Positions 1 through 16,413 of a stretch of DNA of 17,808 nt are shown piece after piece (position 1 is the stretch's first letter; every line of letters starts with the position of its first letter). The stretch comes from Thermovirgaceae bacterium (GTDB lineage Bacteria; Synergistota; Synergistia; Synergistales; Thermovirgaceae), in NCBI GenBank assembly GCA_046542505.1, contig JBKHBH010000037.1, forward strand, positions 1 through 17,808, read 5' to 3'. Below the pieces are notes generated by a model that saw only the letters and a program-made list of their open reading frames with translations, ran no database searches and had not been told where the DNA came from. Position numbers and translations under genes: made by a program.

Positions 1-860
1 TGGTCGGCGGCGAGGGCCCCGCTGGCATAACCGAGGATCTCGGCCATGGGCTCGTACCCCTGCGATCTGGCCCACTCTTCGTCGGCCACGACCACGGCGC
101 TTCCCGCATCGCACAGGGCCGAGCTCGTTCCTGCCGTCACTGTTCCGCCCTCGCGGAAGATGGCGGGAAGCCGGCCGAGTTTTTCCATGCTCGTGTCGGC
201 CCTGGGAATCTCCTCGGTAGCGAAGGTGATGGTCTCCTTTTTCCTTTTCACCGTGACAGGGACGGTCTCCTCTTCGAAAAGCCCCTTTTCCACCGCGGCC
301 AGAGCCTTTTTGTGGCTTTCAAAGGCGAAGGCGTCCTGTTCCTCGCGACTGATGTCATACTCGTCCACAAGGATTTCCGCCGTGGCGCCCATCATCATAT
401 CCGCCAGGGGACACATGAACCCGTCCTTGTGCAGTACGTCCATTGCGGTCTTGTCCCCCATCCTGTGGCCCCAGCGAGCCTCAGGCAGGATATAGGGCGT
501 CTTCGAGGCACTCTCCATGCCTCCTGCGACAGCGGCCCTGATATCGCCCAGGCGCACCCTGTCGGAGGCGAGCATGACGGCCCTGAGTCCCGAGCCACAT
601 CGTTTGTTCACCGTAAAGGCCGGAATGCTCTGCGGGAGTCCCGCCTTGTACAAGGCAATTCGGGCCGGGTTCGCCCCGACGCCGGCCTGCCAGCCGTTTC
701 CCATGATAACTTCGGCGATATCCCTGTCGGAAAGACCCGACCGCCTCATGGCATCGGCGATGGCGAACCCTCCGAGGTCCGTGGCCTCAAAGGATGACAA
801 CGTTCCGCCAAACTTTCCGCCGCCGGTCCTGCAGGCGGAAAGCACAACAGCTTTTCCCAT
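1..860 (-). CDS. Thiolase family protein (acetyl-CoA C-acyltransferase), 3' end truncated by window edge
   Basis: Absent from the ORF track (no stop in window); translated by hand. ATG at 860 with GGGAG SD gives MGKAVVLSACRTGGGKFGGTL..., VIMGNGWQAG, catalytic-Cys motif AFTVNKRCGSGLR, AGGMES, MMMGATAE, GGTVTAG. Confidence 0.93.
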   Translation of the reverse strand, partial: MGKAVVLSACRTGGGKFGGTLSSFEATDLGGFAIADAMRRSGLSDRDIAEVIMGNGWQAGVGANPARIALYKAGLPQSIPAFTVNKRCGSGLRAVMLASDRVRLGDIRAAVAGGMESASKTPYILPEARWGHRMGDKTAMDVLHKDGFMCPLADMMMGATAEILVDEYDISREEQDAFAFESHKKALAAVEKGLFEEETVPVTVKRKKETITFATEEIPRADTSMEKLGRLPAIFREGGTVTAGTSSALCDAGSAVVVADEEWARSQGYEPMAEILGYASGALAAD

Positions 861-890
861 TTTTCGTCACGCTCCCTTGTCTTCCGGAAA

Positions 891-923
891 CGGGGGACCA
901 GGGGAAAACTCCAAAGTCCCCCG
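891..923 (-). terminator. GC-rich stem-loop between CoA-transferase beta and thiolase (weak terminator or mRNA stabiliser)
   Basis: Perfect 8-bp inverted repeat CGGGGGAC (891-898) / GTCCCCCG (916-923); only TTT follows on the minus strand. Confidence 0.45.
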
Positions 924-930
924 ATGATTT

Positions 931-1620
931 TCAGTCCTGCTCTTCTTCCTCGCAGCCCTGCATGACGCACAGGTCCGGGCTTGTCACATATTCAGCCTCG
1001 GTGACTTCCTTGAGGTCCTCTTCCGAGACGCCCGGCGCCAGTTCCTCGAGCACCATCCTGCCCTCAACGAATCGAAAGACGGCATACTCGGTGACGACAA
1101 GGCTCACTACGCCCGCCCCCGTCAGGGGCAAACTACACTTTTTCACCAGTTTCGCCCCGCCCTTTTTGGTGGTGTGGGTGGTGGCCACGATGACATGCTT
1201 TGCCCCGGTCACGAGGTCCATGGCCCCGCCCATGCCGGGAACGAGCTTGCCTGGGATCCACCAGTTGGCCAGGTTTCCTTCCTGGTCCACCTGCAGCGCT
1301 CCAAGCACCGTAGCATCAAGGTGGCCGCCGCGGATGAGGCCGAAGCTGAAATCGCTGGCGATGAGGGCACCGCCCGGAAGGACAGAGAGGCACCGCCCAC
1401 CAGCGCCGATGAAACGGAGGTCATCCTCGGGCGGTTTGGGCCCGGCCCCCACGACGCCGTTTTCCGTCTGGAAGGTCACCCTGACGCCCGCGGGGATATG
1501 GTCCGATACCAAAGTCGGGATCCCGATCCCCAGATTCACAACGTCGCCGTCCACGAATTCCCGGGCGATCCGCCTGGCTATTCTGTGGCGCACGACTTCT
1601 TCATCAAGTACGGGAAGCAT
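931..1620 (-). CDS. 3-oxoacid CoA-transferase beta subunit (AtoA/ScoB/YodR-like)
   Basis: 229 aa; VNLGIGIPT, FQTENG (catalytic Glu, S/TENG motif), GALQVD..GNLANW, PGMGGAMDLV, CSLPLTG; GAAGGGGG SD; overlaps the alpha-subunit 3' end by 17 nt. Confidence 0.95.
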   Translation of the reverse strand: MLPVLDEEVVRHRIARRIAREFVDGDVVNLGIGIPTLVSDHIPAGVRVTFQTENGVVGAGPKPPEDDLRFIGAGGRCLSVLPGGALIASDFSFGLIRGGHLDATVLGALQVDQEGNLANWWIPGKLVPGMGGAMDLVTGAKHVIVATTHTTKKGGAKLVKKCSLPLTGAGVVSLVVTEYAVFRFVEGRMVLEELAPGVSEEDLKEVTEAEYVTSPDLCVMQGCEEEEQD

Positions 1621-2302
1621 AGTAGGAATCCCCCTTCAAAACGAGAATGTCCACCAGGATTCCGGGCGTGACCACATCGTTGGGGTCGAGCTTGCCCACT
1701 TCCAGGATGGCATCCACCTCTGCGATGACAACGTCCGCCGCGGCTGCCATGGCAGGGTTGAAGTTCCGGTTCGTTCCGTAGTAAACGATGTTGCCGTAGC
1801 GGTCCGCCCTGTAGCCCCGTATCAATGCCACATCGGCCTTCAGGGGCAGTTCAAGGATGTATTTGCGGCCGTCGATTTCGAGAACCTGCTTCCCCTCCTC
1901 GTGAACCGTTCCCACACCCGTCGGAGTGAGAATGCCGCCCAGGCCGAATCCGCCGGCCCTGATCCGTTCCACAAAGGTTCCCTGGGGGACGAGCTCCAGA
2001 TCCAGCTTCCCTTCGTTGAACAGGCGCTGGGTGGCCTTGTTGAGCCCCACATGGGACGCGATGACCTTTTTGACCTGCCCGGCCGTTACCAGTTTTCCGT
2101 GCCCCACATCATCGTAGGCGGTGTCATTGGCGACAAGGGTCAGGTCCTTCGTGCCGGCCGACACCAGCGCATCCACGAGAGTATAGGGGATGCCACCGTA
2201 GTTGAAACCGCCGACCATGACCGAGCTTCCCGGCTCGATGTGATTCACGGCCTCCTCGGCGGAGGTGACGGGCTTGATGACTTTTGTAGGCATGAGGTTC
2301 AT
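1604..2302 (-). CDS. 3-oxoacid CoA-transferase alpha subunit (AtoD/ScoA/YodS-like)
   Basis: Start reassigned to ATG 2302 (ATGA overlap with the permease stop, AGGAGG SD; ATG 2293 is an alternative). VMVGGF..GIP, SHVGLN, PQGTFVERIRAGGFGLGGILTPTGVGT, ADRYGN, NFNPAMA, VVTPGILVD. Confidence 0.95.
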   Translation of the reverse strand: MNLMPTKVIKPVTSAEEAVNHIEPGSSVMVGGFNYGGIPYTLVDALVSAGTKDLTLVANDTAYDDVGHGKLVTAGQVKKVIASHVGLNKATQRLFNEGKLDLELVPQGTFVERIRAGGFGLGGILTPTGVGTVHEEGKQVLEIDGRKYILELPLKADVALIRGYRADRYGNIVYYGTNRNFNPAMAAAADVVIAEVDAILEVGKLDPNDVVTPGILVDILVLKGDSYYASRT

Positions 2303-4293
2303 GATCCCTCCTTCTCGGAATCTGTCTGTTCTGCTGCAATTGGTTCGCCCATTTCCGCCTTGTCCAGTTTCGCCTTCCGCTGCTGCAGGAACAGCACTCC
2401 GCCCAAAACCGCGATGCCGAAAATGTCCGTCACAAAGCCGGGCTTGATGAGGGCAAAGGCGGTGATTCCAAAGAGAATCCGTTCGATCACGTTCAGTTTC
2501 GCAATGTAATAGTTCTGCACGCAGGCCGCCAGGGCAATGACGCCGAGGATGGCCGTTGTGCTTGCCAGAAGAACCCGCCAAAGTTCCCCCTGGAAGAGAA
2601 GCGCCTGGTTATAGGCAAACATGAAGGGCACGATAAATCCCGCCAGGGCAAGTCCCAAAGCCGTGAATCCCGTGCGCATGGCGTTGGCCCGTGCGATTCC
2701 CGCTCCAGCGTAGGCCGCCAGAGCCACAGGCGGCGTGATGTCCGCAATGACGCCGTAATAAAGGATAAACAGGTGCGCCGCCAGCATGGGAACTCCCATC
2801 TTGTGGATAGCCGGAGCCGCCAAAGTGGAGAGGATGATGTACTTGGCCGTTGTCGGCAGGCCCATGCCGAGAATGATGGAGGCGATCATGGTCAGAATCA
2901 GCGCGAGAAAAAGGATGCCATGGGACAGGCTGATGATAAAGGACGTGAAGGCCAGCCCGAGGCCCGTGATGCCAACCACGCCGATGACGATCCCCGAACA
3001 GGCGCAGGCGGCGGCCACTTCCACGGCCGACGTCCCCCCCTCTATGAAGGAATCGATGATTTTTTTTGGTGTCATCCGGTGTTCCTTCGGCCCGATCCAG
3101 CTCACGCCGATCAGAAGCATGATTGACCAGAAGACGGCTTTGATGGCCGAATACCCGAAGGCGAGAAAAACGATGAGTGTCACCACCGGAAGAAGGAGAT
3201 GCCATCCTTTTTTGAGAACTTCCTTCGACTTCGGGAGCTGGTCCTTCGGGATTCCCTTTATACCTTCACGGCCGGCCCTGAAGTGGACCATGGCGAAGAT
3301 GGAGAAAAAGTACAGCGCCGCCGGGATCGCCGCCGAAACGACGATGGTCCAGTAGGATATTCCCAGAAACTGGGCCATGACAAAGGCCGCGGCCCCCATG
3401 ACGGGCGGCATGATCTGGCCGCCCGTGGAAGACGCCGCTTCCACGGCGCCGGCGAAATGACTGGGATAGCCCACGCTTTTCATCAGGGGGATCGTAAAGG
3501 ACCCGGTGGTCACCGTGTTCGCCACGGAGCTTCCGGAAACGCTTCCCATGAGTGCGCTGGACACGATTGCCGCTTTCGCCGGCCCTCCCCTGCTTCTGCC
3601 CGTCAGGGCAAAGGCGAGGTCGATGAAAAACTGCCCGGCACCGGAAACATTCAGCACCGCCCCGAAGAGGACGAACAAAAAGATGAACGACGCCGAGACC
3701 CCCAGGGGAACGCCGAAGATCCCGTCAGTCCGCAGGTACATGTAGGGCGCCAGTTCACTGACGGGAAATCCCGGATGGGCCAGCATTCCCGGCAGGTACG
3801 GGCCGAAGACGGCATAGAGCAGCGCCACGATGGCCACAATGGGAAGCGGCCATCCCACGGTCCGCCTGGTGGCATCGATGACCAGAACGGTCATGATGAC
3901 GCCCAGAACGATATCGGACTGCACGGGATTTCCTGCCCTGTTGGTTATGGCCTCCCAGTTGATCAGGATGTTCATGCAGCCATATACCAGAAGCCCCGCC
4001 AGGGCCCAGTCCCAGATGTCGATTTTGTCCACCGGGCGTTTTTTCGATATGGGATAAAGCAGGAAAATGATGGCTCCCATGAGCAGCCAGTGAATGCCCC
4101 GTTGCTTCATGGCGTAGAAAAGCCCGAAGGCCGCCGTGTAAAGATGAAAACATGAAGCCGCAATCGCCAGGGCGGCGATGGTCCAGTATTGCCAGCCCTC
4201 GAGCTGGCGCTTCCCGCCTTCGAGCTTTCTCAAAATTTCCTCGTCGGCGATTTTTCCCCCCTGTTGGGTATTATTCTTTTTCTCGTCTTTCAT
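2299..4293 (-). CDS. TRAP transporter fused permease (4TM/12TM DctQM fusion, TAXI-associated)
   Basis: Start ATG 4293 (GGAGGGAG SD), 664 aa, highly hydrophobic; GGPAKAAIVSSALMGSVSGSSVAN, EAASSTGGQIMPPVMGAAAF, GMGLPTT, ADITPPVALAAY. Confidence 0.95.
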   Translation of the reverse strand: MKDEKKNNTQQGGKIADEEILRKLEGGKRQLEGWQYWTIAALAIAASCFHLYTAAFGLFYAMKQRGIHWLLMGAIIFLLYPISKKRPVDKIDIWDWALAGLLVYGCMNILINWEAITNRAGNPVQSDIVLGVIMTVLVIDATRRTVGWPLPIVAIVALLYAVFGPYLPGMLAHPGFPVSELAPYMYLRTDGIFGVPLGVSASFIFLFVLFGAVLNVSGAGQFFIDLAFALTGRSRGGPAKAAIVSSALMGSVSGSSVANTVTTGSFTIPLMKSVGYPSHFAGAVEAASSTGGQIMPPVMGAAAFVMAQFLGISYWTIVVSAAIPAALYFFSIFAMVHFRAGREGIKGIPKDQLPKSKEVLKKGWHLLLPVVTLIVFLAFGYSAIKAVFWSIMLLIGVSWIGPKEHRMTPKKIIDSFIEGGTSAVEVAAACACSGIVIGVVGITGLGLAFTSFIISLSHGILFLALILTMIASIILGMGLPTTAKYIILSTLAAPAIHKMGVPMLAAHLFILYYGVIADITPPVALAAYAGAGIARANAMRTGFTALGLALAGFIVPFMFAYNQALLFQGELWRVLLASTTAILGVIALAACVQNYYIAKLNVIERILFGITAFALIKPGFVTDIFGIAVLGGVLFLQQRKAKLDKAEMGEPIAAEQTDSEKEGS

Positions 4294-4337
4294 ATGCCGC
4301 TCCCTCCAAAAGACAAATAGAATCCCGAGCCGGAAGG

Positions 4338-4361
4338 GGGGCGGGTGCAAAGGCCCGCCCC
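4338..4361 (-). other. Intercistronic stem-loop after the TAXI receptor gene
   Basis: GGGGCGGG (4338-4345) / CCCGCCCC (4354-4361), 8-nt loop, no U-tract; typical position for differential stabilisation of binding-protein mRNA. Confidence 0.55.
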
Positions 4362-4380
4362 TGTGCTGCAATGTGTTCTG

Positions 4381-5334
4381 CTATTTCTTACACTCGTAGC
4401 CTTGTTCGTCGAAGTATTTGGCAGCGCCGGGATGGTAGGGGATAATCCCCTTGCTGGCTTCTTCGGGAATGAAGTGAGCCGCCTGGGGCGTCACGTCCAT
4501 GAACGCGTCCTTGTTTTCGATGAGGGTCTTGACGAGATTGTAGGCAAGCTCTTCGTCCATGTTCTCGTGAACCACCATGTAGTTCCCGTCTGCGATGGTC
4601 AAAACCGGCTCGGTGATGGACTTGTATACGCCGCCTTCAAGGGTGTAGGGCAAAAGGAAGGGGTTCTTCTCGACGATCTTGTCTACGAGATCTTCCGGCA
4701 GCGGGATGAAGCGGACCTTGCGGACAGCCTCGACTTCCATGACGGCCGCGCCGGGAGCGGCGAAATTCCAGAATACGGCGTCTACATTGCCGTCTTTCAG
4801 GGCCGTGGCCGCCTCGGGCTGGGTCAGCTGGGCCATGTCAAAATCCTCTTCAGGATCGATGCCGGCGGCATCGAGGATCATCCTGGTCAGCACCTGGTTC
4901 CCGCTGCCCGGGGCCCCGATGGAGACCCGTTTGCCCTTGAGGTCGTCGAAGGTCTTGATCCCGGACTTTTCAATGGTCAGAAGATGCTGTGGCGCGGGGT
5001 ACATGTTGAAAAGAGTCATGAGGGGCAGCTCACCATCTTCTTCAAAGGCTTCGGTCCCGGTGTAGGCCTGCCACAGGGTTGACCCCATGGTCATCCCCAT
5101 CTGGGCCTTGCCGGAGGCCACGAGGCGGCAGTTTTCCTTCGAGGCCGCCGTCGTCCTGGACGTAGCCTTCACATCAATGCCGGCCTTGTTGAGGACCTCG
5201 GCCATGGCACCGCCGAGAGGATAGTATGTGCCTCCCACTCCGCCGGAACCGATGGTGACGAAAGTCACAGCAAAAGCCGCCGCCGAGAACGCCAGAACCG
5301 CTGCTACTGCAAGAGGTACGAGAACCTTTTTCAT
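4381..5334 (-). CDS. TAXI family TRAP transporter solute-binding subunit
   Basis: Start ATG 5334 (AAAGGAGG SD), 317 aa; signal peptide MKKVLVPLAVAAVLAFSAAAFA; TIGSGGVGGTYYPLG, DLKGKRVSIGAPGSG, ALKDGNVDA, C-terminal IPYHPGAAKYF. Confidence 0.95.
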   Translation of the reverse strand: MKKVLVPLAVAAVLAFSAAAFAVTFVTIGSGGVGGTYYPLGGAMAEVLNKAGIDVKATSRTTAASKENCRLVASGKAQMGMTMGSTLWQAYTGTEAFEEDGELPLMTLFNMYPAPQHLLTIEKSGIKTFDDLKGKRVSIGAPGSGNQVLTRMILDAAGIDPEEDFDMAQLTQPEAATALKDGNVDAVFWNFAAPGAAVMEVEAVRKVRFIPLPEDLVDKIVEKNPFLLPYTLEGGVYKSITEPVLTIADGNYMVVHENMDEELAYNLVKTLIENKDAFMDVTPQAAHFIPEEASKGIIPYHPGAAKYFDEQGYECKK

Positions 5335-5460
5335 CCTGCACACTCCTCCTTTTCTCTGCTTCACCCGATCAACGGGTGATTACCGATGTTTCCCGTTCTT
5401 TCCGACTCCAAATGGGTCATTCGGAAACGCGCCGGGTCTCACCTCCCTCGATTCTTCCAA

Positions 5461-6855
5461 TTACCGGGATGAATCCAGAAGTCTTGTCGAGGCCGCCTTG
5501 AGGCTCTCTTCGAGGATCGAAAGGATTTCGTCGATCTGGTCCTCCTGGACCACCAACGGCGGCGCGACCATGAAACTGTCGCCGTCTACGCCGTCGACCA
5601 TGCCCGTACCCGGGTAGACGATCAGCCCCCGTTTCGTGCACTCTTCGGAAACGACGCCGACCGCCCGGGCAGCCTTCGGGAAGGGCTGCTTCGTCTTCTT
5701 GTCGGCCACGATCTCGACACCTCGCATGAGGCCAAGCCCGCGGGTTTCGCCCACGATCGGAACCTCTTCTAGTTTTTTCAGCCCCTCACTGAGCCGCTGT
5801 CCCTGTTTCGCGGCGTTCTCGAAGAGCCCCTTTCTTTTCATGTACCGCACCGTCGCCGCCGTGGCCGCCGCCGACAGGGGGTTGCCGTTGTAAGTGTGGC
5901 CGTGCACGAAGGCACCGCTCCCCTTTTTGATAACCTCCACGATTGCGTTTTTGACAAATATGCCGCCCGTCGGGACGTACCCCGCGGCCATGCTTTTCGC
6001 AGCCGCCATGATATCCGGGACAACGTCCCAGTGCTGAACGGCGAAAGCTTTTCCGGTCCTGCCAAAACCCGTCATGACTTCGTCGGCGACGAGGAGGATG
6101 TCGTAGCGGTCACAGATCTCCCGGACCATGGGCCAGTATTCCGGCGGCGGGTTCAGGGCGCCCACCGTTGAGCCCACCACGGGCTCGGCCAGGAAGGCGG
6201 CGATATACTGCGGACCTGTCCGTTTGATCGCCAGCTCCACCTGCTTGGCGCACATGAGGCCGCAGGAAGGGTATTTTTGACCCCAGGGGCACCGGTAGCA
6301 ATAGTGGGTGTCCACCTTCGGGTGCTCCTTGAACATGGGGGCGTACATCCGCCGGCGCGGCATGTTGCCGCCTACGGCCATGGTGCCGATGGTGCTCCCG
6401 TGATAGGAGTTGTAGCGGGAAAGAATCAGGTGCTTCTGCGAGCCGGAGCCGTCACGCTCGACGTAGTACTGCCTGGCGAGCTTGACGGCCGATTCGACGG
6501 CTTCGCTCCCCCCGCTGACGAACCAGACCCAGTCCAGGTCCCCGGGAGTGAGTTCGGCGATCTCCTCGGCGGCTTCTTCGGAAGGCCTGTTTCTCCAGCG
6601 TGACGGGTGAGCGAAGGCCATGGTCGCCAGCTGCTCTGAAATCGCCTCGACCACTTCGGGGACACTGTGACCGATGCTGGAAATGAGAGCCCCCGAGCAC
6701 CCGTCAAGGTACCTGTTGCCCTTTTCGTCATGGATATAAAGTCCTTCGGTGCGAACGGCGAGGGGCAAATCACCCTTCAACGTCCTGGGGAGTACGTGAC
6801 CTGTGCCCAATCCTTTCATCTCCTTTTTCGCGTGGGGTTTATGGCCGTGTTTCAA
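5461..6855 (-). CDS. Class-III PLP-dependent aminotransferase (omega/beta-amino-acid type, YodT-like)
   Basis: 464 aa from a TTG overlapping the regulator stop (TTGA); YLDGCSG, FVSGGSEAVE, SYHG, AEPVVG, LVADEVMTGFGRTG, PDIMAAAKS (PLP Lys), HGHTY, RGLG, APPL. Start could be the later ATG at 6819. Confidence 0.93.
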   Translation of the reverse strand: MKHGHKPHAKKEMKGLGTGHVLPRTLKGDLPLAVRTEGLYIHDEKGNRYLDGCSGALISSIGHSVPEVVEAISEQLATMAFAHPSRWRNRPSEEAAEEIAELTPGDLDWVWFVSGGSEAVESAVKLARQYYVERDGSGSQKHLILSRYNSYHGSTIGTMAVGGNMPRRRMYAPMFKEHPKVDTHYCYRCPWGQKYPSCGLMCAKQVELAIKRTGPQYIAAFLAEPVVGSTVGALNPPPEYWPMVREICDRYDILLVADEVMTGFGRTGKAFAVQHWDVVPDIMAAAKSMAAGYVPTGGIFVKNAIVEVIKKGSGAFVHGHTYNGNPLSAAATAATVRYMKRKGLFENAAKQGQRLSEGLKKLEEVPIVGETRGLGLMRGVEIVADKKTKQPFPKAARAVGVVSEECTKRGLIVYPGTGMVDGVDGDSFMVAPPLVVQEDQIDEILSILEESLKAASTRLLDSSR

Positions 6856-7742
6856 TCACCGCCGTCACTGCTGCTTTCTGATGCCTTTGCGGGATCGCCA
6901 TGGCGCTCCCTTGCCTGATAGACGCCCGTTTCCTTCCAGACCTCCTCGAGTTCCGCCAGTTTTTTCCGGGTCTCATCGCCCAGCTTTCGCGACGCCGCAA
7001 GAATGATGCAATTGATGACGCTGACCGGCGCCGTGAAAGAGTCTATGAAGGAAAGGGGATTCCAGGGAACGGTGACGACCAGCTCCGAATGGGCCGCCAG
7101 CGGGCTCGAATAGTCGTTGGTCACCGCGGCGACTTTCAGGCCCTTTTTCCGGGCGTGCTGCAGCATCTGGATCGTCCAGGTGGTATACCTTGGGAAACTG
7201 ATCCCGACGACAAGAGTCTCCCTGGCCGCTCTGGTGATCTTTTCCAGGGCTGTTTCCGAGTCGAGGAGTTCCACCGTCGGGAAAAGCCAGGAGAGGTAGT
7301 GGAAGAGGTAGTAGGCAAGGGCTCTCGAGCTTCTGTGCCCCACAATGAACACCGATTCGGCGCCCGCAATTTCGCCGCCCAACCGCTCGATGGCCTCAAC
7401 ATCAACTTCCGCCCGTGCCGAGGCGAGGGAATCCATGTCGCTTTCTATGGCCTTGTGGACCAGGCTTCCCGCTTCCTGGGCGGAGTATTCCCCGATCCGC
7501 TCCAGAGTCGACAGGCGCTCCATGAGGAGGTCCTTCACGGCTGTCCGGAGACCGGGATACCCCTCGAACCCAAGGGCCGAGGCAAAACGGATCACCGTCG
7601 ACTCGCTCACGCCAACCCTCTCGCCGACCTTGGCGGCGGTCAAAAAGGCCGCGTCCTTCGGGTTTTCCAGAATGAACCTCGCCGTTTCCTGCTGCCCTGG
7701 CGTAAGATCATGCATCTTGTCGGCAACCAGTTTCCTGAGCAT
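6852..7742 (-). CDS. MurR/RpiR family transcriptional regulator (HTH + SIS)
   Basis: 296 aa; HTH TAAKVGERVGVSESTVIRFASALGFEGY; SIS domain with ISFPRY and VTNDYSSPLA; GGGAGG SD. Confidence 0.93.
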   Translation of the reverse strand: MLRKLVADKMHDLTPGQQETARFILENPKDAAFLTAAKVGERVGVSESTVIRFASALGFEGYPGLRTAVKDLLMERLSTLERIGEYSAQEAGSLVHKAIESDMDSLASARAEVDVEAIERLGGEIAGAESVFIVGHRSSRALAYYLFHYLSWLFPTVELLDSETALEKITRAARETLVVGISFPRYTTWTIQMLQHARKKGLKVAAVTNDYSSPLAAHSELVVTVPWNPLSFIDSFTAPVSVINCIILAASRKLGDETRKKLAELEEVWKETGVYQARERHGDPAKASESSSDGGD

Positions 7743-7796
7743 CCATTCCCTCCCGGGAAAAGCTTTCCTGCATACGCAAAACCTGCACTGGTAGTC

Positions 7797-7824
7797 TATT
7801 TATGCAGGATTTCCTGCATAAATA
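7797..7824. promoter_or_regulatory. Perfect 28-bp palindromic operator
   Basis: TATTTATGCAGGA-TT-TCCTGCATAAATA (13-bp perfect arms); overlaps the -10 and likely start site of the leftward promoter. Confidence 0.75.
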
Positions 7825-7850
7825 ATAGCCACTGCCATTTCCTCTGTCAA
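7822..7850 (-). promoter_or_regulatory. Sigma70/SigA promoter of the RpiR-aminotransferase-TRAP operon
   Basis: Minus strand TTGACA (7850-7845), 17-nt spacer, TATTAT (7827-7822). Confidence 0.75.
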
Positions 7851-7942
7851 CCTCGATCTTGCCGGATATATAATCGCCCTTCCACATACGTGCTGATATA
7901 ATGCACTCAAGGAGTTCGCGGAATTCGAAAAACGCCTCCAGG

Positions 7943-7998
7943 CTGTAATAAAATTGTGACATTCCTGTAAGACACCCGTTACGGCCTGCGCCTATACT
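7943..7998 (+). promoter_or_regulatory. Pho boxes (four 11-bp direct repeats) and -10 of the pstS promoter
   Basis: CTGTAAT-AAAA, TTGTGAC-ATTC, CTGTAAG-ACAC, CCGTTAC at 7943/7954/7965/7976, resembling the CTGTCAT PhoB half-site; TATACT at 7993-7998 lies exactly 10 nt after the last heptamer. Confidence 0.8.
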
Positions 7999-8054
7999 CC
8001 ATCGTGAAAGGTCCGGACAAACCCGGATCATCATGAATCAGGAGGGATTGTGTA

Positions 8055-8870
8055 ATGAAACGAATCGGACTGCTTCTTTCGGTTTCTCTACTTGTCGTCG
8101 GAGCAATCGCGGGCGCGGCATTCGCCGGCGATCTCGTCATCAAGGGCTCCACTACGGTACTTCCCATCGGTCAGGCCGCGGCGGAAAAGTTCATGGAAGC
8201 TCATCCCGACACGTCGATCTCCGTCTCTGGCGGCGGCAGCGGAAACGGCATCAAGGCCATCATCGACCAGACCACCGACATCGCCATGGCCTCGCGGTTC
8301 ATCAAGGACAAGGAAGTGAAAACCGCCGTCGAGGGCGGTGCCTATCCCGTCCCCTTCGCCGTGGCCATCGACGCCCTTCTTCCCGTCGTGCACCCCGACA
8401 ACCCTGTCAAAGACCTGACGATCCAGCAGCTTCACGACATCTATGCCGGGAAGACCACCAACTGGAAGGATCTCGGCGGACCTGACAAGAAAATCCTTCC
8501 CGTAACCAGGGACACCAGCTCGGGGACTTTCGAGGTCTGGAAATCGAAGATCATGGACGGAGAAAGGATCATTCCCAGTGCCCAGGTGGTAGCCTCCAAC
8601 GGCGCCATGGTCCAGAGCGTTTCAGGGAACCCTGCGGCCGTTGGCTATATCGGCATCGGCTACCTCGACAGTTCCGTAAAGTCCGTGACAGTCGACGGCA
8701 CCGAGGGAAACAACGAAACCTCCATCAGCGGGGAGTACCCCCTTACCAGGCACCTCTTCATGTTCACCCCGGGCTGGCCCACAGGGGACGCCATGGATTT
8801 CATCAACTACGTCCTCAGCGATGCCGGCCAGGAGATCGTGGCTTCCACGGGTTACGTGCCGCTTCGGTAG
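8055..8870 (+). CDS. pstS: Phosphate ABC transporter substrate-binding protein PstS
   Basis: 271 aa; signal peptide ending AFA; IKGSTTVLP, GGGSGNGI, DIAMASR, TRDTSSGTFE, YPLTRHLF; AGGAGG SD. Confidence 0.96.
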   Translation: MKRIGLLLSVSLLVVGAIAGAAFAGDLVIKGSTTVLPIGQAAAEKFMEAHPDTSISVSGGGSGNGIKAIIDQTTDIAMASRFIKDKEVKTAVEGGAYPVPFAVAIDALLPVVHPDNPVKDLTIQQLHDIYAGKTTNWKDLGGPDKKILPVTRDTSSGTFEVWKSKIMDGERIIPSAQVVASNGAMVQSVSGNPAAVGYIGIGYLDSSVKSVTVDGTEGNNETSISGEYPLTRHLFMFTPGWPTGDAMDFINYVLSDAGQEIVASTGYVPLR

Positions 8871-8902
8871 TTCTGAAAGGATCACAAGGGCGAACTGGTT
8901 TA

Positions 8903-8935
8903 CCCCGGGCCGCGCCTCCCAGAGGCGGCCCGGGG
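8903..8935 (+). other. Strong stem-loop between pstS and pstC
   Basis: CCCCGGGCC-(GC)-GCCTC-CCA-GAGGC-GGCCCGGGG, 14 bp of pairing, no strong U-tract. Confidence 0.65.
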
Positions 8936-8982
8936 ATGTTTCCGGCAAGAAACCGGTGAAACAGACGGAAAGGGATTGAATC

Positions 8983-9861
8983 ATGGCAACCACTCTCAAA
9001 GGCGACAGGCTCCCTAAAGCTGCAATATCCGTCATCGCAAGCATCGGTCTCGCAGTGATGCTTTTCATCCTCTTTTTCCTGGTGAAAGAAAGCTACCCGA
9101 TTCTTCTGGACACGTCGGTAAAGGAGCTTTTCCTCAGCAGCGAATGGTTTCCGACGGACGACCCGCCCGAGTTCGGCATGCTGTCCTTGATCGCCGGCTC
9201 CCTTTCGGTAACGCTTTTGGCTTCCTTGCTTGCGGTCCCCGTCAGCCTCTTTCTGGCGGTCTTTTTGTCAGAGGTCTGCCCCTCGGCTCTTCGCGAGGTT
9301 CTCAAACCCGTGGTGGAAATCCTCGGATTCTTTCCCTCGGTGGTTCTCGGCTTTATCGGCATGGTGATCATCGCCCCCTGGCTGGTTTCGGCACTCAACG
9401 TGTTTTCGGGGCTCAACCTGCTCAATGCTTCGGTCCTCATGGGCGTCATGATCGTTCCTATCGTTGCCTCCCTGGCGGAAGACAGCCTGGGGAGCGTTCC
9501 AAAAGACCTCCGCGACGCTTCCTACGCCCTTGGAGCGACCCGCCTTGAAACGATCTCTCGGGTGGTCATCCCCGCCGCCCTTCCCGGGATTCTTCAGGCC
9601 ATTCTTCTGGGCGTCATGCGAGCCGTGGGGGAAACCATGGTGGTCCTCATGGCCGCCGGAGGATCGGCCATCATCCCCCTGGCACTCACGGACCCTGTCA
9701 GACCCCTGACCTCGGCCATCGCGGCCGAAATGGGCGAAACACCCGTCGGGACCGCCCATTACCACGCCCTGTTTTTCGCCGGGCTGCTTTTGCTTTTCAT
9801 GACCCTGGGGCTCAACCTCATCGCTCTTCGGATTGAAAAACGGGGAAGGAGGTGGCGCTGA
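8983..9861 (+). CDS. pstC: Phosphate ABC transporter permease PstC
   Basis: 292 aa membrane protein; WFPT, KPVVEILGFFPSVVLG, EAA-loop DASYALGATRLET, RAVGETMVVLMAAG. Confidence 0.96.
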   Translation: MATTLKGDRLPKAAISVIASIGLAVMLFILFFLVKESYPILLDTSVKELFLSSEWFPTDDPPEFGMLSLIAGSLSVTLLASLLAVPVSLFLAVFLSEVCPSALREVLKPVVEILGFFPSVVLGFIGMVIIAPWLVSALNVFSGLNLLNASVLMGVMIVPIVASLAEDSLGSVPKDLRDASYALGATRLETISRVVIPAALPGILQAILLGVMRAVGETMVVLMAAGGSAIIPLALTDPVRPLTSAIAAEMGETPVGTAHYHALFFAGLLLLFMTLGLNLIALRIEKRGRRWR

Positions 9862-10721
9862 TGCCCAGCTCGGCAAGACATGCAAAGGATCGCGCCGCCA
9901 CGCTGTTTCTGTGGGCCATCATGGCGGCAACCTGCGCCCTTCTTTTCGGCATTCTTGCCTTTGTCGTCTCCAAGGGCTGGAGCGCAATAAGCTGGGAATT
10001 TCTGACCAGGCCTCCGCGGGACCAGATGACCGCAGGCGGCATCCTTACGCCCATCCTGGGGACACTGCAGCTCGTCGGAGTTTCCATGGCCTTCGCCTTT
10101 CCCGTGGGCGTTTTCACCGCCGTCTACCTGGTGGAGTACGCCAGAGACGACATGTTCACCCGGTTCCTGCGGCTTGCCGTCAGAAGCCTGGCCGGGGTCC
10201 CCTCGGTGGTCTTCGGCCTCTTCGGCCTGACTTTTTTCGTCATCTTCCTGAAGTTCGGTTCGTCCCTGCTTTCGGCGGGGCTGACCCTGGGCTGCCTGGC
10301 CCTTCCCGTCATCGTGGGGGCCTCGGAATCGGCCCTACTGGCCGTCCCGAAAGACTACCGGGACGCCTCTTACGCCATGGGGGCAACACGATGGCAGACG
10401 ATTCGCAAAGTGGTCCTGCCTGCGGCCTTTCCGTCCATTATCACCGGGGCCATCCTGTCCGTGGGCAGGGTAGCCGGAGAGACGGCGCCCATCATTTTTA
10501 CCGGCGCCGCCTTTTCCGCTCCGCGAATCGCCAAAAGCCTTTTCGACGAAATCATGGCCCTGCCCTATCATATTCTCGTACTGGCGACGGCGGGAACACA
10601 CATCGACAAGACCCGCCACATCCAGTACGGAACCGTCCTGGTCCTGCTGGCCCTTGTTTTGGGGATAACGCTCTTCGGCGTACTCTGGAGGTCCCGGCTC
10701 AGGCGACGAGCGAGGGGCTGA
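9861..10721 (+). CDS. pstA: Phosphate ABC transporter permease PstA
   Basis: Probable start ATG 9861 (TGATG overlap with pstC, GGAGG 8 nt upstream); [55 protein letters not shown]. Confidence 0.96.
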
Positions 10722-10743
10722 CGCCTTGGAAGGGGATTGCACC

Positions 10744-11499
10744 ATGAAAGACAAGATCGTTATCGAGAACCTGAATCTTCATTACGGAACGAACCACGCC
10801 CTCAAGGATATCAACACGAAGATTCCCGAGAAAGCCGTCACGGCATTGATCGGGCCCTCGGGCTGCGGCAAGAGCACATTCTTGAGGTGCATCAACCGGA
10901 TGAACGACTTCATCTCTAGTTGCCGCATCGAGGGAAAGGTCTTTTTGGACGGCAAAAACATTTACGCGCCCGGGACGGACCCGATTAACCTCCGCCGGGA
11001 CGTGGGCATGGTGTTCCAGCGACCGAACCCGTTCCCCATGTCCATCTACGACAACGTGGCCTACGGTCCCAGGCTGCACGGCATCAAGAAAAGAAAGGAA
11101 CTGGACACCGCCGTGGAAAACAGCCTCAAGGCGGCGGCCCTCTGGGAGGAAGTCCGCGAAAAACTTTCAAGCCCCGCACTGTCTCTTTCCGGGGGACAGC
11201 AGCAGCGCCTCTGCATCGCCAGGGCCATCGCCGTCGAACCCGAGGTGCTTCTGATGGACGAACCCACTTCCGCCCTGGACCCCATGGCCACGGCCCGTAT
11301 CGAGGAGCTCGTCAGGGAATTGAGCGAGACTTACACCGTAGTCATCGTGACCCACAACATGCAGCAGGCCGCGAGAATTTCAGACGAGACGAACTTTTTC
11401 CTCATGGGCGAGATGATCGAGGCCGGACCCACGCAGACCATGTTCACTTCGCCGAAAGACAAGCGGACGGAGGATTATATAACGGGCCGCTTCGGATAG
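10744..11499 (+). CDS. pstB: Phosphate ABC transporter ATP-binding protein PstB
   Basis: Start ATG 10744; Walker [10 protein letters not shown], signature [13 protein letters not shown], Walker [18 protein letters not shown]-terminal [10 protein letters not shown]. Confidence 0.97.
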
Positions 11500-11545
11500 A
11501 ATCCTCCGCGCGGCAGGCTACTGACGGAGAAAAGAGGGAAGGAAA

Positions 11546-12244
11546 ATGACGAACACCTTGTCTGGACGAAAAGCTTTCGACGAACAGCTTGAAAAGCTCG
11601 AACAGAACCTCATGAAGCTCGGCACCCTCGCCGAAGATGCCATCTGCAAGGCAATATGGGCTCTTCAGAAGCGGGATGACGCCCTGGCCCTGGAGGTCAT
11701 GGAAAACGATGACGTTTTGGACGATCTGACGGAAAAAATCAACGAACAGGCCCTGGCCATCATCGCCCGCTTCCAGCCCGTGGCCATGGACCTTCGTCTC
11801 GTTTCGGCGATCATCCACATGGCGACGGACCTGGAGCGCATCGGAGACCTGGGTGTCAGCATTGCGAAGATCACCAAGAAACTCTCCGGCCAGAAGCTGA
11901 TCAAGCCTCTCATCGATGTGCCGCGGATGGGGGACCTCATCCGTCGGATGATCGACGTCGCCCTGAAGGCCTTCATGAACAAGGATGCCGATGAAGCCAC
12001 ACAGGTCTGTGCCATGGACGACGAGATCGACGACCTGGACAACCAGATCTTCCGTGAACTGGTTGTCCTCATGATGGAAAACCCCCGGAACATCGAGCAG
12101 GCGACACAGCTCATCCTCGTCTCCCGGAGCCTCGAACGGGCCGGGGACCACGTGACGAACCTCTGCGAGCAGACCGTGTACGTGCTTACGGGCCAGACCA
12201 TCAAGGCTTCAGATTACCGGCGCCCGAGGGATGGTGGCAACTGA
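11546..12244 (+). CDS. phoU: Phosphate signalling complex protein PhoU
   Basis: 232 aa; RFQPVAMDLR, DLERIGD, DDEIDDL, LERAGDHVTNLCE. Confidence 0.96.
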   Translation: MTNTLSGRKAFDEQLEKLEQNLMKLGTLAEDAICKAIWALQKRDDALALEVMENDDVLDDLTEKINEQALAIIARFQPVAMDLRLVSAIIHMATDLERIGDLGVSIAKITKKLSGQKLIKPLIDVPRMGDLIRRMIDVALKAFMNKDADEATQVCAMDDEIDDLDNQIFRELVVLMMENPRNIEQATQLILVSRSLERAGDHVTNLCEQTVYVLTGQTIKASDYRRPRDGGN

Positions 12245-12247
12245 TTC

Positions 12248-12952
12248 ATGAGCACCGGGCGGATTCTCGTCATCGAGGATGAACAGACCATCGCAGAATT
12301 GGTGGCGGACTCCCTGAGGCTGTGGGGCTACAGGGTCGAAACCGTCGGCGACGGTGACGAGGGGCTTGCCGTAGCGGAAGGCACCTTGCCGGATCTGGTG
12401 GTCCTGGACCTGATGCTTCCGGGTCTCGATGGCTGGGAAATCTGCAGGAGGCTGAAGGAAAAGGAAGCCACCCGGGATATTCCCGTGATCATGCTCACCG
12501 CAAGGCGTGACGAACGGGACGTGGTGGCGGGGCTTGAACTCGGCGCCGACGATTACCTGCGAAAGCCCTTTTCCATGTCGGAACTCGTGGCGCGGGTCCG
12601 GGCCCTCCTGAGGCGTGCGGCGCAAAGCACCACATCGGGGGAGAAGACATCCATCGGCCCCCTGGTCCTGGACCACGAAAGGGAATCGGTCACCCTTCGT
12701 GGAGAATTCCTGGAACTCAGCCCGACGGAATACCGGCTCCTCGAAACGCTGGCCCGCTCCGCCGGCCGTGTTCTCTCGAGGGAGGAACTCCTTGGCAAGG
12801 TGTGGGGCTATTACGCCGGTGACACCAGGACCGTGGACGTGCACATCTGGCGCCTGAGGCGGAAGATCGAAACCGACCCGGAAAACCCGAAAATGCTTCA
12901 TACCCTCAGGGGACGGGGATATCGGCTTCAGTGGGAGGACGAGGGAGAATGA
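12248..12952 (+). CDS. phoB: OmpR/PhoB-family response regulator (PhoB/PhoP)
   Basis: 234 aa; ILVIEDE, VLDLMLPGLDG (phospho-Asp), GADDYLRKPF, winged helix RTVDVHIWRLRRKIE..TLRGRGY; directly follows phoU. Confidence 0.9.
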   Translation: MSTGRILVIEDEQTIAELVADSLRLWGYRVETVGDGDEGLAVAEGTLPDLVVLDLMLPGLDGWEICRRLKEKEATRDIPVIMLTARRDERDVVAGLELGADDYLRKPFSMSELVARVRALLRRAAQSTTSGEKTSIGPLVLDHERESVTLRGEFLELSPTEYRLLETLARSAGRVLSREELLGKVWGYYAGDTRTVDVHIWRLRRKIETDPENPKMLHTLRGRGYRLQWEDEGE

Positions 12953-14706
12953 GAACCCTGAAAGGGAGAATGACCGATCTCGTGGCAACGGTGCTTGCCC
13001 TGGCCCTTTTGGCGGGATGGTTCGTCGTCGGCAACGGCATTGAGGAACGCATGCACCGGCAGGCCAGAACCTCCCTGCTCCACCAGATGGAAGTTCTTGT
13101 CGGGGTCCTTGGCGAAACGGGCCTCGACGGGTTCAGCGATGTCCTCGAACGCATGGAAGCCTCGACAGGTACCCGTGTCACCGCCGTAAACATGCGGGGG
13201 AAGGTCCTCTACGACACCCAGGCGGCCCCCGAGAGGATGGACAACCACGCCGACCGCCCCGAAATCCGGGAAGCCATGCTGAGAGGGACGGGCATCTCTT
13301 CACGTTACAGCCGGAGCCTCGGCGAGGAACAACTGTATATCGCCCGCCTGGCCACGGACCCCCAGGGGGACACCCTCATTCTCAGGACATCTCTTTCGCT
13401 CCGGTATATCCTGGATGCTGTGAATTCCGCGAGAACCCGGCTTCTGTTTTCCCTTCTTCTTGCCGGTGGTGCGGCCATGGCGGCGGGACTTTTTTTCCTC
13501 CGTCAGGTCACGAAACCCCTTGAAGATCTCACTCGTGCCGCCTTCAGCCTCCGGGAAGGGAAACAACCCCTGTTCCCCTCGTCGGGGACCCTTGAAGTAC
13601 AACGCCTGGCATCGGCTTTGGAGAACATGTCAGACCGCCTCGAAGCGGCCATGGGCGACCTGCGCCGTGAACAGGGATATCTCCGCTTCCTTTTGGAATC
13701 CCTTCCAGTGGGTGTTCTGGTCGTGGATGACGGCGGGAGGATCCGTTACGCCAACTCGGCCCTGTCTTCCCTGCTCAGGGATGTCCCGGCAAAGATCGAG
13801 GGATCCGCCTACCTTTCGGCCATAAAGGCTCCCGAACTTCTCGACCTCCTCGAAAAGGCCTACAAGGGACAAAGCGGACGGGCCGTCTTTTCCGTTCGCG
13901 GCGTGGAAGAAAAATTCCTCGAGGCACAGGTCATCAAGATCGACTGGGGCGTTCTGGCCGTTTTGAACGACCTGACGAACCGGATGCGCCTTGAGGAATC
14001 CAGGAAGGCCTTCGTCGCCGACGCCGGCCACGAACTCCAGACACCATTGACGGCCATAAGGGCCGCCGCCGAACTTCTGGCCGACGACAGGGAGCTGGAC
14101 AACGCAAAGCGCCGTTCCATCGCCCAAAAGATCATCACCCAGCAGGAGCGCATGACGACCCTCGTGGATGACCTGCTTTTGCTGTCACGGCTGGAGTCGG
14201 AAGTTCCTGCTGAAGAACCCGAAGAGCTTGACCTGGCGGGACTTCTGAGTTCCCTGGTGGAAAACACCCTCGCCAGTCCGCTGGTCGAATCAATCAATGT
14301 GGAAAGTGACATTTCCGGACCGGCCCCTGTCATCGGACGCCCGGGTGACCTCTGGCGGGCTTTCGGCAACATCCTGGACAACGCCGTCAAATACACGAGA
14401 AAACGCCATGGCGACAAGCCCGGCGGGAAAATACGGGTGACCCTCGTCCGGACAAAAGACAGCTGGGAAGTTGTCATCGAGGACAACGGCATCGGCATCC
14501 CGCCCCAGGCGAGGGGCATCATCTTCGAACGCTTCCAGCGGGCCGAGACGGACCGCTCCAGGGAAAGCGTCCCCTCGGGCGGCTACGGCCTGGGACTGGC
14601 CATTGCCAGGCGCGTCTTCGAAACCCACGGCGGCTCCATCACCGCCGACGATACCGCAGAAGGTGCCCGTTTCACCGTTTCTCTTCCCTTTGCGGATTCC
14701 GATTGA
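12949..14706 (+). CDS. phoR: Phosphate-regulon sensor histidine kinase PhoR (2 TM, HAMP, PAS, HisKA, HATPase)
   Basis: Start ATG 12949 (ATGA overlap); extracytoplasmic MDNHADRPEI; H-box FVADAGHELQTPLTAI, N-box NILDNAVKY, G1 DNGIGI, F IFERF, G2 GYGLGLAI. Confidence 0.9.
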   Translation: MRTLKGRMTDLVATVLALALLAGWFVVGNGIEERMHRQARTSLLHQMEVLVGVLGETGLDGFSDVLERMEASTGTRVTAVNMRGKVLYDTQAAPERMDNHADRPEIREAMLRGTGISSRYSRSLGEEQLYIARLATDPQGDTLILRTSLSLRYILDAVNSARTRLLFSLLLAGGAAMAAGLFFLRQVTKPLEDLTRAAFSLREGKQPLFPSSGTLEVQRLASALENMSDRLEAAMGDLRREQGYLRFLLESLPVGVLVVDDGGRIRYANSALSSLLRDVPAKIEGSAYLSAIKAPELLDLLEKAYKGQSGRAVFSVRGVEEKFLEAQVIKIDWGVLAVLNDLTNRMRLEESRKAFVADAGHELQTPLTAIRAAAELLADDRELDNAKRRSIAQKIITQQERMTTLVDDLLLLSRLESEVPAEEPEELDLAGLLSSLVENTLASPLVESINVESDISGPAPVIGRPGDLWRAFGNILDNAVKYTRKRHGDKPGGKIRVTLVRTKDSWEVVIEDNGIGIPPQARGIIFERFQRAETDRSRESVPSGGYGLGLAIARRVFETHGGSITADDTAEGARFTVSLPFADSD

Positions 14707-16139: not shown

Positions 16140-16158
16140 GATCGTCACCTCGATACAT

Positions 16159-16198
16159 ATGTTACATGCAACAGTTGCATTCTGCAACTATATGCAAA
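16159..16198 (-). promoter_or_regulatory. Putative MarR operator array and promoter of marR-arsM
   Basis: Overlapping palindromes ATGCAAC-A-GTTGCAT (16166-16180) and AGTTGCA-TTC-TGCAACT (16173-16189); candidate minus-strand TTGCAG(16187-16182)-17-TAACAT(16164-16159). Confidence 0.65.
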
Positions 16199-16376
16199 AA
16201 GAGAACTGTCCTTTACCGAATACTGCGTCGAGACTCCTGCCAAGGCCAATGCACAAGAAAGAAAAGTCAACCTGGAAATGCCCTTTCTCAAAAGAGGACT
16301 CTTTTTCGAAAACGGCTTGTACCTGAAGCCGGGGGCTCGGGGTTTCTTTTGTCGCAAGATCCCTGAAGTATCTCGA

Positions 16377-16413
16377 GGTCTCCCCCGAATAAACGGTCGA
16401 GGCGGAAGAGACC
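16377..16413 (-). terminator. Stem-loop just downstream of the thiE stop
   Basis: Minus-strand RNA GGUCUCUUCCG / CGGGGGAGACC, 11-bp stem with two G-U pairs, 15-nt loop, no U-tract. Confidence 0.4.

Follow-up and report, generated by a model that had tools for sequence, protein, structure and literature searches.

A putative seven-gene operon of a Thermovirgaceae bacterium (Synergistota) is probably a self-regulating cassette for taking up and breaking down a 3-amino (beta-amino) carboxylic acid, as judged from its sequence and from those of its relatives. The operon lies in the window, by which we mean the whole 17,808-nucleotide stretch of DNA that was analyzed (G000:C84:1-17808, position 1 being the contig end). 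Profile searches of the window with Pfam and NCBIfam models found seven co-oriented genes on the minus strand, running from position 7742 down to position 1, in the order rpiR/SIS regulator, class-III aminotransferase (AT), TAXI binding protein, fused TAXI permease, CoA-transferase subunit A, CoA-transferase subunit B, and thiolase. The seven genes named in a first-pass annotation of this DNA were all present as described, with the correction that the start of the window cuts the thiolase gene, the rest of which is on another contig, C74.

In the pathway that we propose, the TAXI binding protein and the fused permease would import the beta-amino acid, and the AT would make a 3-oxoacid of it by passing the 3-amino group on to 2-oxoglutarate or pyruvate. 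The two-subunit family-I CoA-transferase would convert this to the 3-oxoacyl-CoA, with acetyl-CoA, or the acyl-CoA from the final step, as the CoA donor; in that final step the thiolase would cleave the 3-oxoacyl-CoA to acetyl-CoA and an acyl-CoA two carbons shorter. Acetyl-CoA would then yield ATP by way of acetate formation. The RpiR/SIS protein would sit on a palindrome at the promoter and be released by an effector, either the substrate or an intermediate.

The seven-gene set is strongly co-conserved in Synergistota. An AT relative (E <= 1e-120) was found in 103 of 251 sampled Synergistota genomes. Forty loci of about 19 kb each, from 38 genomes in 12 families, were chosen by hand with regard to flank length and to a range of identities (54 to 90%), and relatives of the seven window proteins were placed in them by tblastn. 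The exact order rpiR-AT-TAXI P-TAXI QM-ctfA-ctfB-thl recurred in 24 of the 40 loci, and 5 more had the six-gene order without an upstream same-strand rpiR. Six loci had AT, CtfAB, and thiolase in another order or without the TAXI genes in between, two had AT and CtfAB alone, and three had no CtfAB in the fetched stretch. The AT was kept with a CoA-transferase in 37 of the 40, and rpiR-AT was the most constant pair in the cassette. The co-conservation raised by the first-pass annotation is borne out by these counts. Two Synergistota loci (L091 and L092) showed rpiR-AT-ctfA-ctfB without TAXI or thiolase genes. In L091, the one of the two whose downstream part was scanned, a divergent MatC_N/CitMHS-type carrier (11879-13243) lies beside these genes, which hints that the substrate may be dicarboxylic in that lineage.

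Gene clusters around relatives of the AT independently support a tie between this lineage and beta-amino acid chemistry, in which the 3-amino group would be removed and the 3-oxoacid handed to the CoA-transferase. The related-locus search on the AT returned 79 loci. The AT adjoins CtfA and CtfB in the Synergistota loci L004, L007, L011, L012, and L015, and the same link occurs in Spirochaetota (L005, L006, and L010) and in Bacillaceae (L037, L039, L041, and L059). About 60 loci, mostly from Acidobacteriota and Chloroflexota and with AT proteins of 39 to 47% identity, had no CtfA or CtfB neighbors. In Neobacillus jeddahensis (L037) and Gottfriedia acidiceleris (L039) the gene order is AT-CtfA-CtfB-M20-GNAT-sigma-54 activator-KamA. 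The L037 AT passes the PRK06917 model (736 bits, cutoff 535), its GNAT protein passes the AblB model TIGR03827, named putative beta-lysine N-acetyltransferase (304 bits, cutoff 205), and its radical-SAM enzyme passes the lysine 2,3-aminomutase model TIGR03820 (636 bits, cutoff 525). We take this Bacillaceae AT-CtfAB-M20-AblB-KamA cluster to be the yodT-yodS-yodR-yodQ-yodP-kamA operon of Bacillus subtilis. The cluster of Peribacillus tepidiphilus (L041) reads DUF3870-CtfA-CtfB-thiolase-AT-GabT-like AT-aldehyde dehydrogenase-M81-GNAT. In an Anaerolineae locus (L023), an AT of the family, scoring 500.2 bits on PRK07483 (cutoff 485), occurs with a lysine 2,3-aminomutase, a CoA-transferase, a GabT-like AT, and an aldehyde:ferredoxin oxidoreductase. 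Because relatives in the AT lineage lie in clusters with lysine 2,3-aminomutase and beta-lysine acetyltransferase, the route from beta-amino acid through 3-oxoacid to thiolysis, which the first-pass annotation had proposed, gains support beyond that of co-conservation; its N-epsilon-acetyl-beta-lysine version fares less well and is taken up below.

A FastTree phylogeny of 122 AT sequences (all matches of at least 38% identity across the loci, plus the window; midpoint-rooted only) placed the cassette ATs in a clade of 57 tips with a support of 0.994, and 48 of these 57 have CtfA/B within 5 kb. Outside a wider AT clade, none of 60 tips passes the tblastn filter for CtfA/B within 5 kb, though the L023 AT does adjoin a Pfam CoA_trans gene. 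The sister to the cassette clade is the Peribacillus AT of L041 (support 0.989). The window AT has its relatives in Synergistota. These distributions bear on the idea that one operon houses two unrelated functions, an acetoacetate-type module of ketoacid uptake, CoA-transferase, and thiolase together with an AT of separate role. Such an arrangement would suit a hydrophobic TAXI site in which only the carboxylate contacts of VcGluP are kept, and it would suit CoA-transferase subunit A, which scores best on an acetate CoA-transferase model. However, the adjacency of AT and CtfAB in three phyla, also where the transporter is absent or of another type, the constancy of the rpiR-AT pair, and the difference between 48 of 57 and 0 of 60 in CtfA/B proximity all speak against it, and we consider it very improbable.

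The enzymes themselves fit the proposed chemistry by family. The AT scores best on the NCBIfam models PRK06917 and PRK07483, followed by omega-transaminase and BioA models, and its best solved structure is 3I4J. Its sequence contains Lys275 in AAAKSMAAGY and Asp246 in ADEVM, the expected catalytic residues. The CoA-transferase belongs to family I of the 3-oxoacid CoA-transferases (AtoDA/ScoAB/PcaIJ), both subunits scoring above NCBIfam subfamily cutoffs, and TENG at residues 51 to 54 of subunit B is the (S/T)ENG motif that holds the catalytic glutamate. On the AtoD equivalog model NF007394, subunit A reached 269.6 bits against a cutoff of 315, and its L083 ortholog reached 271. Thiolase membership is clear from Thiolase_N (PF00108, 263 bits) in the window and Thiolase_C (PF02803, 160 bits) on C74; the expected catalytic motifs are there too, with Cys88 in NKRCGSG in the window and GHP and CIGGGQG on C74. 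A full-length thiolase ortholog in L083, 92% identical, scores 428.1 bits on TIGR01930 (cutoff 240.55) and stays below the substrate-specific cutoffs for the BktB subfamily (417 bits, cutoff 565), PRK08235 (411, cutoff 526), and PcaF (328, cutoff 597).

A feature of the AT family is the motif C-x2-C-x8-C-x3-C (HYCYRCP...YPSCG..CA), which lies at AT residues 174 to 190 (window 6298-6248, minus strand). All four cysteines occur in 95 of the 122 family members, across phyla, and 16 more have the pattern CCCY; the structure 3I4J carries a deletion at this point. The motif may bind zinc or an iron-sulfur cluster, here within a pyridoxal phosphate (PLP) enzyme, and we know of no description of it.

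The content of the cassette would suit either order of the AT and CoA-transferase steps, and in a second version the CoA-transferase would first make a beta-aminoacyl-CoA, on which the AT would act to give the 3-oxoacyl-CoA for the thiolase. An enzyme with that activity is Kat, the 3-aminobutyryl-CoA aminotransferase of a variant lysine fermentation, and an acyl-CoA beta-transaminase adjoins an acetoacetyl-CoA thiolase in 'Candidatus Cloacamonas', according to the Kat report (PMC3149608). The same report describes Kat as HemL-like, with homologues in a tight group and other class-III enzymes at about 30% identity (PMC3149608), and an enzyme of the Kat type would be expected to be HemL-like and no less than about 60% identical to the Cloacamonas one. 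The best 25 of the 69 NCBIfam matches to the window AT include no HemL model, and its top scores are on PRK06917 and PRK07483. A further point against this order is that transferases of the AtoDA/ScoAB type are known to act on 3-oxoacids and short fatty acids but are not known to act on amino acids. We regard the CoA-ester order as improbable and transamination of the free beta-amino acid as the better account.

The transporter was compared with TAXI proteins of solved structure. The binding protein and the fused permease both score above the NCBIfam cutoffs for TAXI-TRAP systems, and the best solved relatives of the binding protein are the glutamate-binding VcGluP (8S4J) and TtGluBP (1US4/1US5), at E about 1e-45. 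Few TAXI ligands are known. We mapped the ligand contacts of VcGluP given in its report (PMC11574862) onto the binding protein by HMMER alignment. In VcGluP, S75 and G156 hold the alpha-carboxylate, Q93 and E125 hold the alpha-amino group, and Y45 and Q93 are key determinants (PMC11574862). The cassette TAXI keeps Y45, Y46, S75, and G156, but has Met83 in place of Q93, Ala114 in place of E125, Tyr112 in place of H123, Trp189 in place of Y200, and Asn146 in place of D157. It falls outside the glutamate/glutamine-specific VcGluP type, and the losses of Q93 and E125 recur in 31 to 32 of 33 cassette TAXIs. TAXIs that adjoin ATs without a CoA-transferase (L120, L121, L116, L013, and L075) keep Gln and Asp/Glu at the two amino-contact positions. 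The 13-position signature GTYYSMYAG(D/N)WNA is nearly invariant among the 33 cassette TAXIs, which are 58 to 94% identical overall, and one ligand class appears to be served. By alignment, the cassette transporter is a non-glutamate-type TAXI, and its conserved binding site is one unlike those of glutamate-binding TAXIs.

Elsewhere the transporter has been exchanged around a constant enzyme core. DctPQM systems take its place in L012 and L122, an aromatic-amino-acid-type permease in L006 and L115, and in L010 a Dpp-type ABC system with an amidohydrolase-type dipeptidase. Such exchange would be expected of a catabolic module for an imported acid. The permeases that follow the cassette in L006 (14030-16126, Spirochaete) and L115 (15935-17173, Synergistota) belong to the Trp_Tyr_perm family and are 47% identical to each other, and in L006 a CN-hydrolase of the amidase/nitrilase superfamily precedes the permease. 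At these two loci an amide or carbamoyl derivative may be the form in which the substrate is taken up or released. The same genus as the window also has a second, rearranged cassette (L098, G081:C1:1779239-1798564), ordered AT-thiolase-CtfA-CtfB-rpiR-TAXI P-TAXI QM. Its enzymes are far more diverged (38 to 52% identity), and its TAXI site carries Y37W, M83T, and A114S. The second cassette probably serves a related but different substrate, which suggests a cassette family for related substrates.

As to the identity of the substrate, a beta-lysine-type compound, either beta-lysine or N-epsilon-acetyl-beta-lysine and leaving 4-amino- or 4-acetamidobutyrate, is a possibility that we hold tentatively. 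It is favored by the gene clusters around the AT relatives, by the KamA data given below, and by the source metagenomes of the window. 3-Aminobutyrate, which would give two acetyl-CoA with no further enzyme needed, is slightly less likely; the best score of CoA-transferase subunit A, on the acetate CoA-transferase model, is in its favor, but nothing specific points to it. That the substrate is some other beta-amino acid seems improbable, and what is left of the odds is the chance that the general model fails. Beta-glutamate is among the possible substrates of this last kind; the non-glutamate-like binding protein gives no direct word on it, and a case built on the MatC-like carrier beside L091 was set aside as unsupported. 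The same was done, for lack of support, with beta-alanine degraded through 3-oxopropanoyl-CoA and formyl-CoA, and with a link to pyrimidine degradation suggested by the CN-hydrolase in L006 and by PreA-like and amidohydrolase genes several kilobases away in L022. An attempt to read chain length from the CoA-transferase and thiolase subfamilies was dropped, all specific equivalogs being below their cutoffs.

With N6-acetyl-beta-lysine as the substrate, the CoA-transferase could pass CoA from 4-acetamidobutyryl-CoA to the next 3-oxoacid and release 4-acetamidobutyrate. The fuller proposal is that the cassette is the genetic basis for scavenging N-epsilon-acetyl-beta-lysine or beta-lysine from methanogens and other halophiles, with the AT as the orphan N6-acetyl-beta-lysine (or beta-lysine) 3-transaminase and the CoA-transferase recycling CoA from 4-acetamido- or 4-aminobutyryl-CoA; in this complete form we think it unlikely. 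The sequencing runs listed as containing the window, none of them an RNA run, are microbial-mat and hypersaline-lake metagenomes, settings in which beta-amino acid osmolytes are expected. If such scavenging took place, many Synergistota would consume osmolytes of their syntrophic partners, and a function would be assigned to the YodT lineage as a whole, the sporulation operon of B. subtilis included.

Lysine 2,3-aminomutase is encoded in the genome of the window itself, as a KamA-type fragment of the first 208 residues at the end of contig C72 (1-625, L123) that scores 272 bits on TIGR03820 over model positions 2 to 199. This fragment and an Amidohydro_3 gene are divergently oriented. Elsewhere in the genus (G081, L128 8655-12704), KamA is followed by an M20 deacylase and then a sodium/solute symporter; the M20 protein is only 28% identical to the Bacillaceae M20, and the unnamed open reading frames (ORFs) beside KamA had no similarity to AblB. 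The BKACE family, which is the Kce family needed for classical lysine fermentation, occurs in only 19 of the 251 Synergistota genomes, and of the 71 genomes with KamA only 5 have it. With BKACE in so few of these 71, beta-lysine needs another fate in most KamA-positive genomes. Classical lysine fermentation was rejected as a context for the operon, since its genome had no BKACE match and no KamD match, the KamD search being a weak one that found no match in control genomes either.

These data raise the possibility of an endogenous lysine outlet, in which the cell's own KamA would make beta-lysine, the operon would degrade it, and the TAXI system would import lysine or an acyl-lysine. The fragment on C72, the KamA-M20-symporter cluster of G081, and the rarity of BKACE agree with this, as does the presence of the AT in 53 of 71 KamA-positive but only 50 of 180 KamA-negative genomes, an association overstated by kinship among the genomes. 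On the other hand, 50 of the 103 AT-positive genomes lack KamA, among them closed or nearly closed genomes with a full cassette (G020, G071, G073, and G107), and none of the 40 loci had KamA within about 9 kb of its cassette. The TAXI site also lacks the acidic residues that a diamino acid, by our expectation, should need. We give the lysine outlet a slim chance and return to a cassette for an imported beta-amino acid.

Several findings weigh against that interpretation, some of them against its beta-lysine form in particular, and the overstated KamA-AT association, the AT-positive genomes without KamA, and the uninformative thiolase and CoA-transferase subfamilies count among them. The window AT stays below the cutoffs of both equivalogs that it resembles, PRK06917 for the YodT type (491.4 bits, cutoff 535) and PRK07483 (480.5 bits, cutoff 485). 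In the midpoint-rooted tree, the KamA-linked Bacillaceae ATs join after the Peribacillus sister with a support of only 0.261. When the 40 Synergistota loci were searched by tblastn with probes from Bacillaceae and Spirochaetes, no AblB-like GNAT, M20, KamA, GabT, or aldehyde dehydrogenase came up within about 9 kb of the AT, and five genomes, including that of the window, had no match to TIGR03827 (AblB). The operon thus lies outside the beta-lysine acetylation cluster type, AT-CtfAB-M20-AblB-KamA. Because no acetyltransferase, deacetylase, or 4-aminobutyrate enzyme was found that close to the AT in the 40 loci, the N-epsilon-acetyl-beta-lysine version of the route would leave an unexplained product. 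For the 3-aminobutyrate version, we know of no abundant natural source of the compound. Finally, where VcGluP binds the amino group of its ligand, the cassette TAXI carries no acidic residue, so that an amine-free ligand is compatible with the binding protein taken alone; an aromatic-rich pocket might hold an ammonium group.

Regulation of the operon was examined upstream of rpiR. The regulator has an N-terminal HTH_6 and a C-terminal SIS domain and belongs to the RpiR/MurR family, scoring far below the cutoffs for the named equivalogs HexR, MurR, and AlsR and below all NCBIfam equivalog cutoffs. The promoter and operator that the first-pass annotation had placed ahead of rpiR were both found, as candidates. 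The promoter is a match in 11 of 12 positions, and seven promoter-like sites occur in positions 1 to 8200 against 2.1 expected. Directly after its -10 box is a perfect 16-base palindrome, TGCAGGAAATCCTGCA; its pattern, at up to three mismatches, has 4 matches in the window against 0.17 expected from shuffles. Of 29 related loci, 10 have the relaxed palindrome TGNAGG-N4-CCTNCA 57 to 88 nucleotides ahead of rpiR; in all, the 752,840 bases of the 40 related loci contain only 20 such sites. The position at the promoter and the recurrence upstream of rpiR fit an RpiR operator with autoregulation.

Within the operon, the genes for the binding protein and the permease are separated by a G+C-rich stem-loop, GGGGCGGG...CCCGCCCC, with a T-rich tract after it, and a terminator scan called a terminator-like site at 4335-4323. 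The stem-loop is a possible attenuating terminator and may raise the level of the binding-protein transcript over that of the permease. A second G+C-rich stem-loop, GGGGGAC...GTCCCCC, lies in the ctfB/thl gap (861-930, minus strand). Coordinates of the genes and regulatory features are collected in the table below.

Features of the operon and of its upstream region, in window coordinates
Feature	Position	Strand	Basis and remarks
Candidate sigma-70-like promoter, TTGACA-17-TATTAT, upstream of rpiR	7822..7850	-	11/12 matches
Perfect 16-base palindrome, candidate RpiR operator	7803..7818	.	directly after -10 box
RpiR/MurR-family regulator, first gene	6852..7742	-	HTH_6 PF01418 46.4 bits; SIS PF01380 58.9 bits
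Class-III PLP aminotransferase, proposed beta-amino acid:2-oxo acid transaminase	5461..6819	-	start ATG 6819, TTG 6810, or TTG 6855; Pfam, NCBIfam, homologues, tree
TAXI-family TRAP solute-binding protein, signal peptide	4381..5334	-	TIGR02122 296.6 bits (cutoff 84.35); ORF opens also at GTG 5364
G+C-rich stem-loop, then T-rich tract	4320..4372	-	between binding-protein and permease genes; sequence read
Fused TAXI-TRAP permease, DctQ-DctM type	2299..4293	-	TIGR02123 741 bits (cutoff 320.65); ORF opens also at TTG 4371
3-Oxoacid CoA-transferase subunit A (AtoD/ScoA/PcaI family)	1604..2302	-	TIGR02429 242.1 bits (cutoff 128.5)
3-Oxoacid CoA-transferase subunit B	931..1620	-	TIGR02428 285.2 bits (cutoff 243.55)
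Thiolase, N-terminal 286 residues, Cys88 in NKRCGSG	1..860	-	Pfam; remainder on contig C74

The first-pass annotation had counted three overlapping junctions, and two of them hold on reading the sequence, an ATGA overlap between the permease and CoA-transferase A genes and a 17-nucleotide overlap, ATGCTTCCCGTACTTGA, between the genes for CoA-transferase subunits A and B. The letters of the third, TTGA at 6855-6852 between rpiR and the AT gene, are present, but it is doubtful as a real junction because 15 AT homologues begin near the in-frame ATG 6819, 36 nucleotides downstream of the TTG overlap start, and because TTG 6810 sits 9 nucleotides past an AAGGAG. The permease ATG at 4293 is preceded by GGAGGGAG. 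The window has a G+C content of about 0.56 to 0.64 and, as a consequence, many spurious ORFs.

At the other end, positions 1 to 55 of the window match the final 55 bases of contig C74 exactly, and C74 holds the 123-residue Thiolase_C part with GHP and CIGGGQG; the two thiolase fragments overlap by 17 residues, all identical. An alkaline phosphatase gene (L003 9983-11521) comes next on C74, and the operon therefore ends with the thiolase. Between the thiolase stop and the phosphatase start on C74 (L003 11521-11585, minus strand) is a 12-base perfect inverted repeat, AAAACTCCCCCT ... AGGGGGAGTTTT, with an internal GAGAC-GA-GTCTC palindrome, ending at the phosphatase start codon. This repeat may act as a terminator or in the control of translation; the terminator scan of this stretch of C74 gave no call there. 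The cassette is flanked by phosphate-regulon genes, with the alkaline phosphatase on C74 on one side and pstS-pstC-(pstA)-pstB-phoU-phoB-phoR (8055-14706, plus strand) on the other, where the ORF at 9833-10747 has no Pfam match and yet occupies the pstA position. Farther along the window are a SAM-dependent methyltransferase gene (14815-15675, minus strand), a 411-residue ORF without a Pfam match (15684-16919, plus strand), and the thiamine genes thiE-like (16419-17060, minus strand) and thiM-like (17057-17806, minus strand), the latter truncated by the window end.

With about two in five of the sampled Synergistota genomes carrying it (103 of 251), the cassette would represent a nutritional trait common in a widespread group of anaerobes, which live in digesters, guts, mouths, and microbial mats, and it would offer a route into the turnover of beta-amino acids and osmolytes, for which our literature search gave no gene assignments. 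It would also provide a testable function for an AT lineage that is annotated only as "aspartate aminotransferase family" or "BioA-like" and that appears to include B. subtilis YodT. In that search, which had subscription journals and some supplements outside its reach, no paper was found that assigns genes to the beta-lysine pathway or describes the cassette, and the names of the Pseudomonas pathway intermediates led only to metabolomics papers. The statement of the first-pass annotation that no operon of this makeup had been characterized agrees with the literature as far as experiments go, but the Bacillaceae AT-CtfAB-M20-AblB-KamA cluster is a close genomic precedent.

Compared with that cluster, the window operon has an AT about 41% identical, shares the four-cysteine motif, and likewise has a two-subunit 3-oxoacid CoA-transferase directly after the AT. 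It differs in having no aminomutase, acetyltransferase, or deacylase and in having TAXI-TRAP, thiolase, and RpiR genes in addition. YodT is described in one study as an uncharacterized putative aminotransferase, SigE dependent, with 3I4J as its best structure (PMC6522883), the same structure that is best for the window AT; the two differ in that the window AT does not reach the PRK06917 cutoff. The Peribacillus cluster shares three enzyme types with the operon, thiolase included, and has the sister AT, but its extra enzymes would carry a 4-aminobutyrate-type product to succinate, and it has neither TAXI nor RpiR. Beta-lysine catabolism in Pseudomonas, known from old biochemical work, reportedly runs through an N6-acetyl-beta-lysine transaminase (EC 2.6.1.65), 3-keto-6-acetamidohexanoate, and 4-acetamidobutyryl-CoA; to our knowledge no genes have been assigned to it and EC 2.6.1.65 is an orphan. 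The logic is the same: the 3-amino group is transaminated, and the 3-oxo compound is then broken into a two-carbon and a four-carbon part, the latter an amide or amine. Cleavage in Pseudomonas, however, reportedly uses acetyl-CoA directly, and genes for acetylation and deacetylation were not found around the cassette. Kat resembles the window AT in being a class-III aminotransferase that gives a 3-oxo compound for a neighboring acetoacetyl-CoA thiolase, but, by its report, it acts on CoA esters only and lies among lysine fermentation genes (PMC3149608), and the window AT appears to belong to another subgroup. The components of the window operon are thus ordinary members of their superfamilies, and their combination has a genomic precedent in Bacillaceae; what appears to be new is a transporter-equipped, RpiR-controlled, and thiolase-completed version of the YodT-type module that is widespread in Synergistota.

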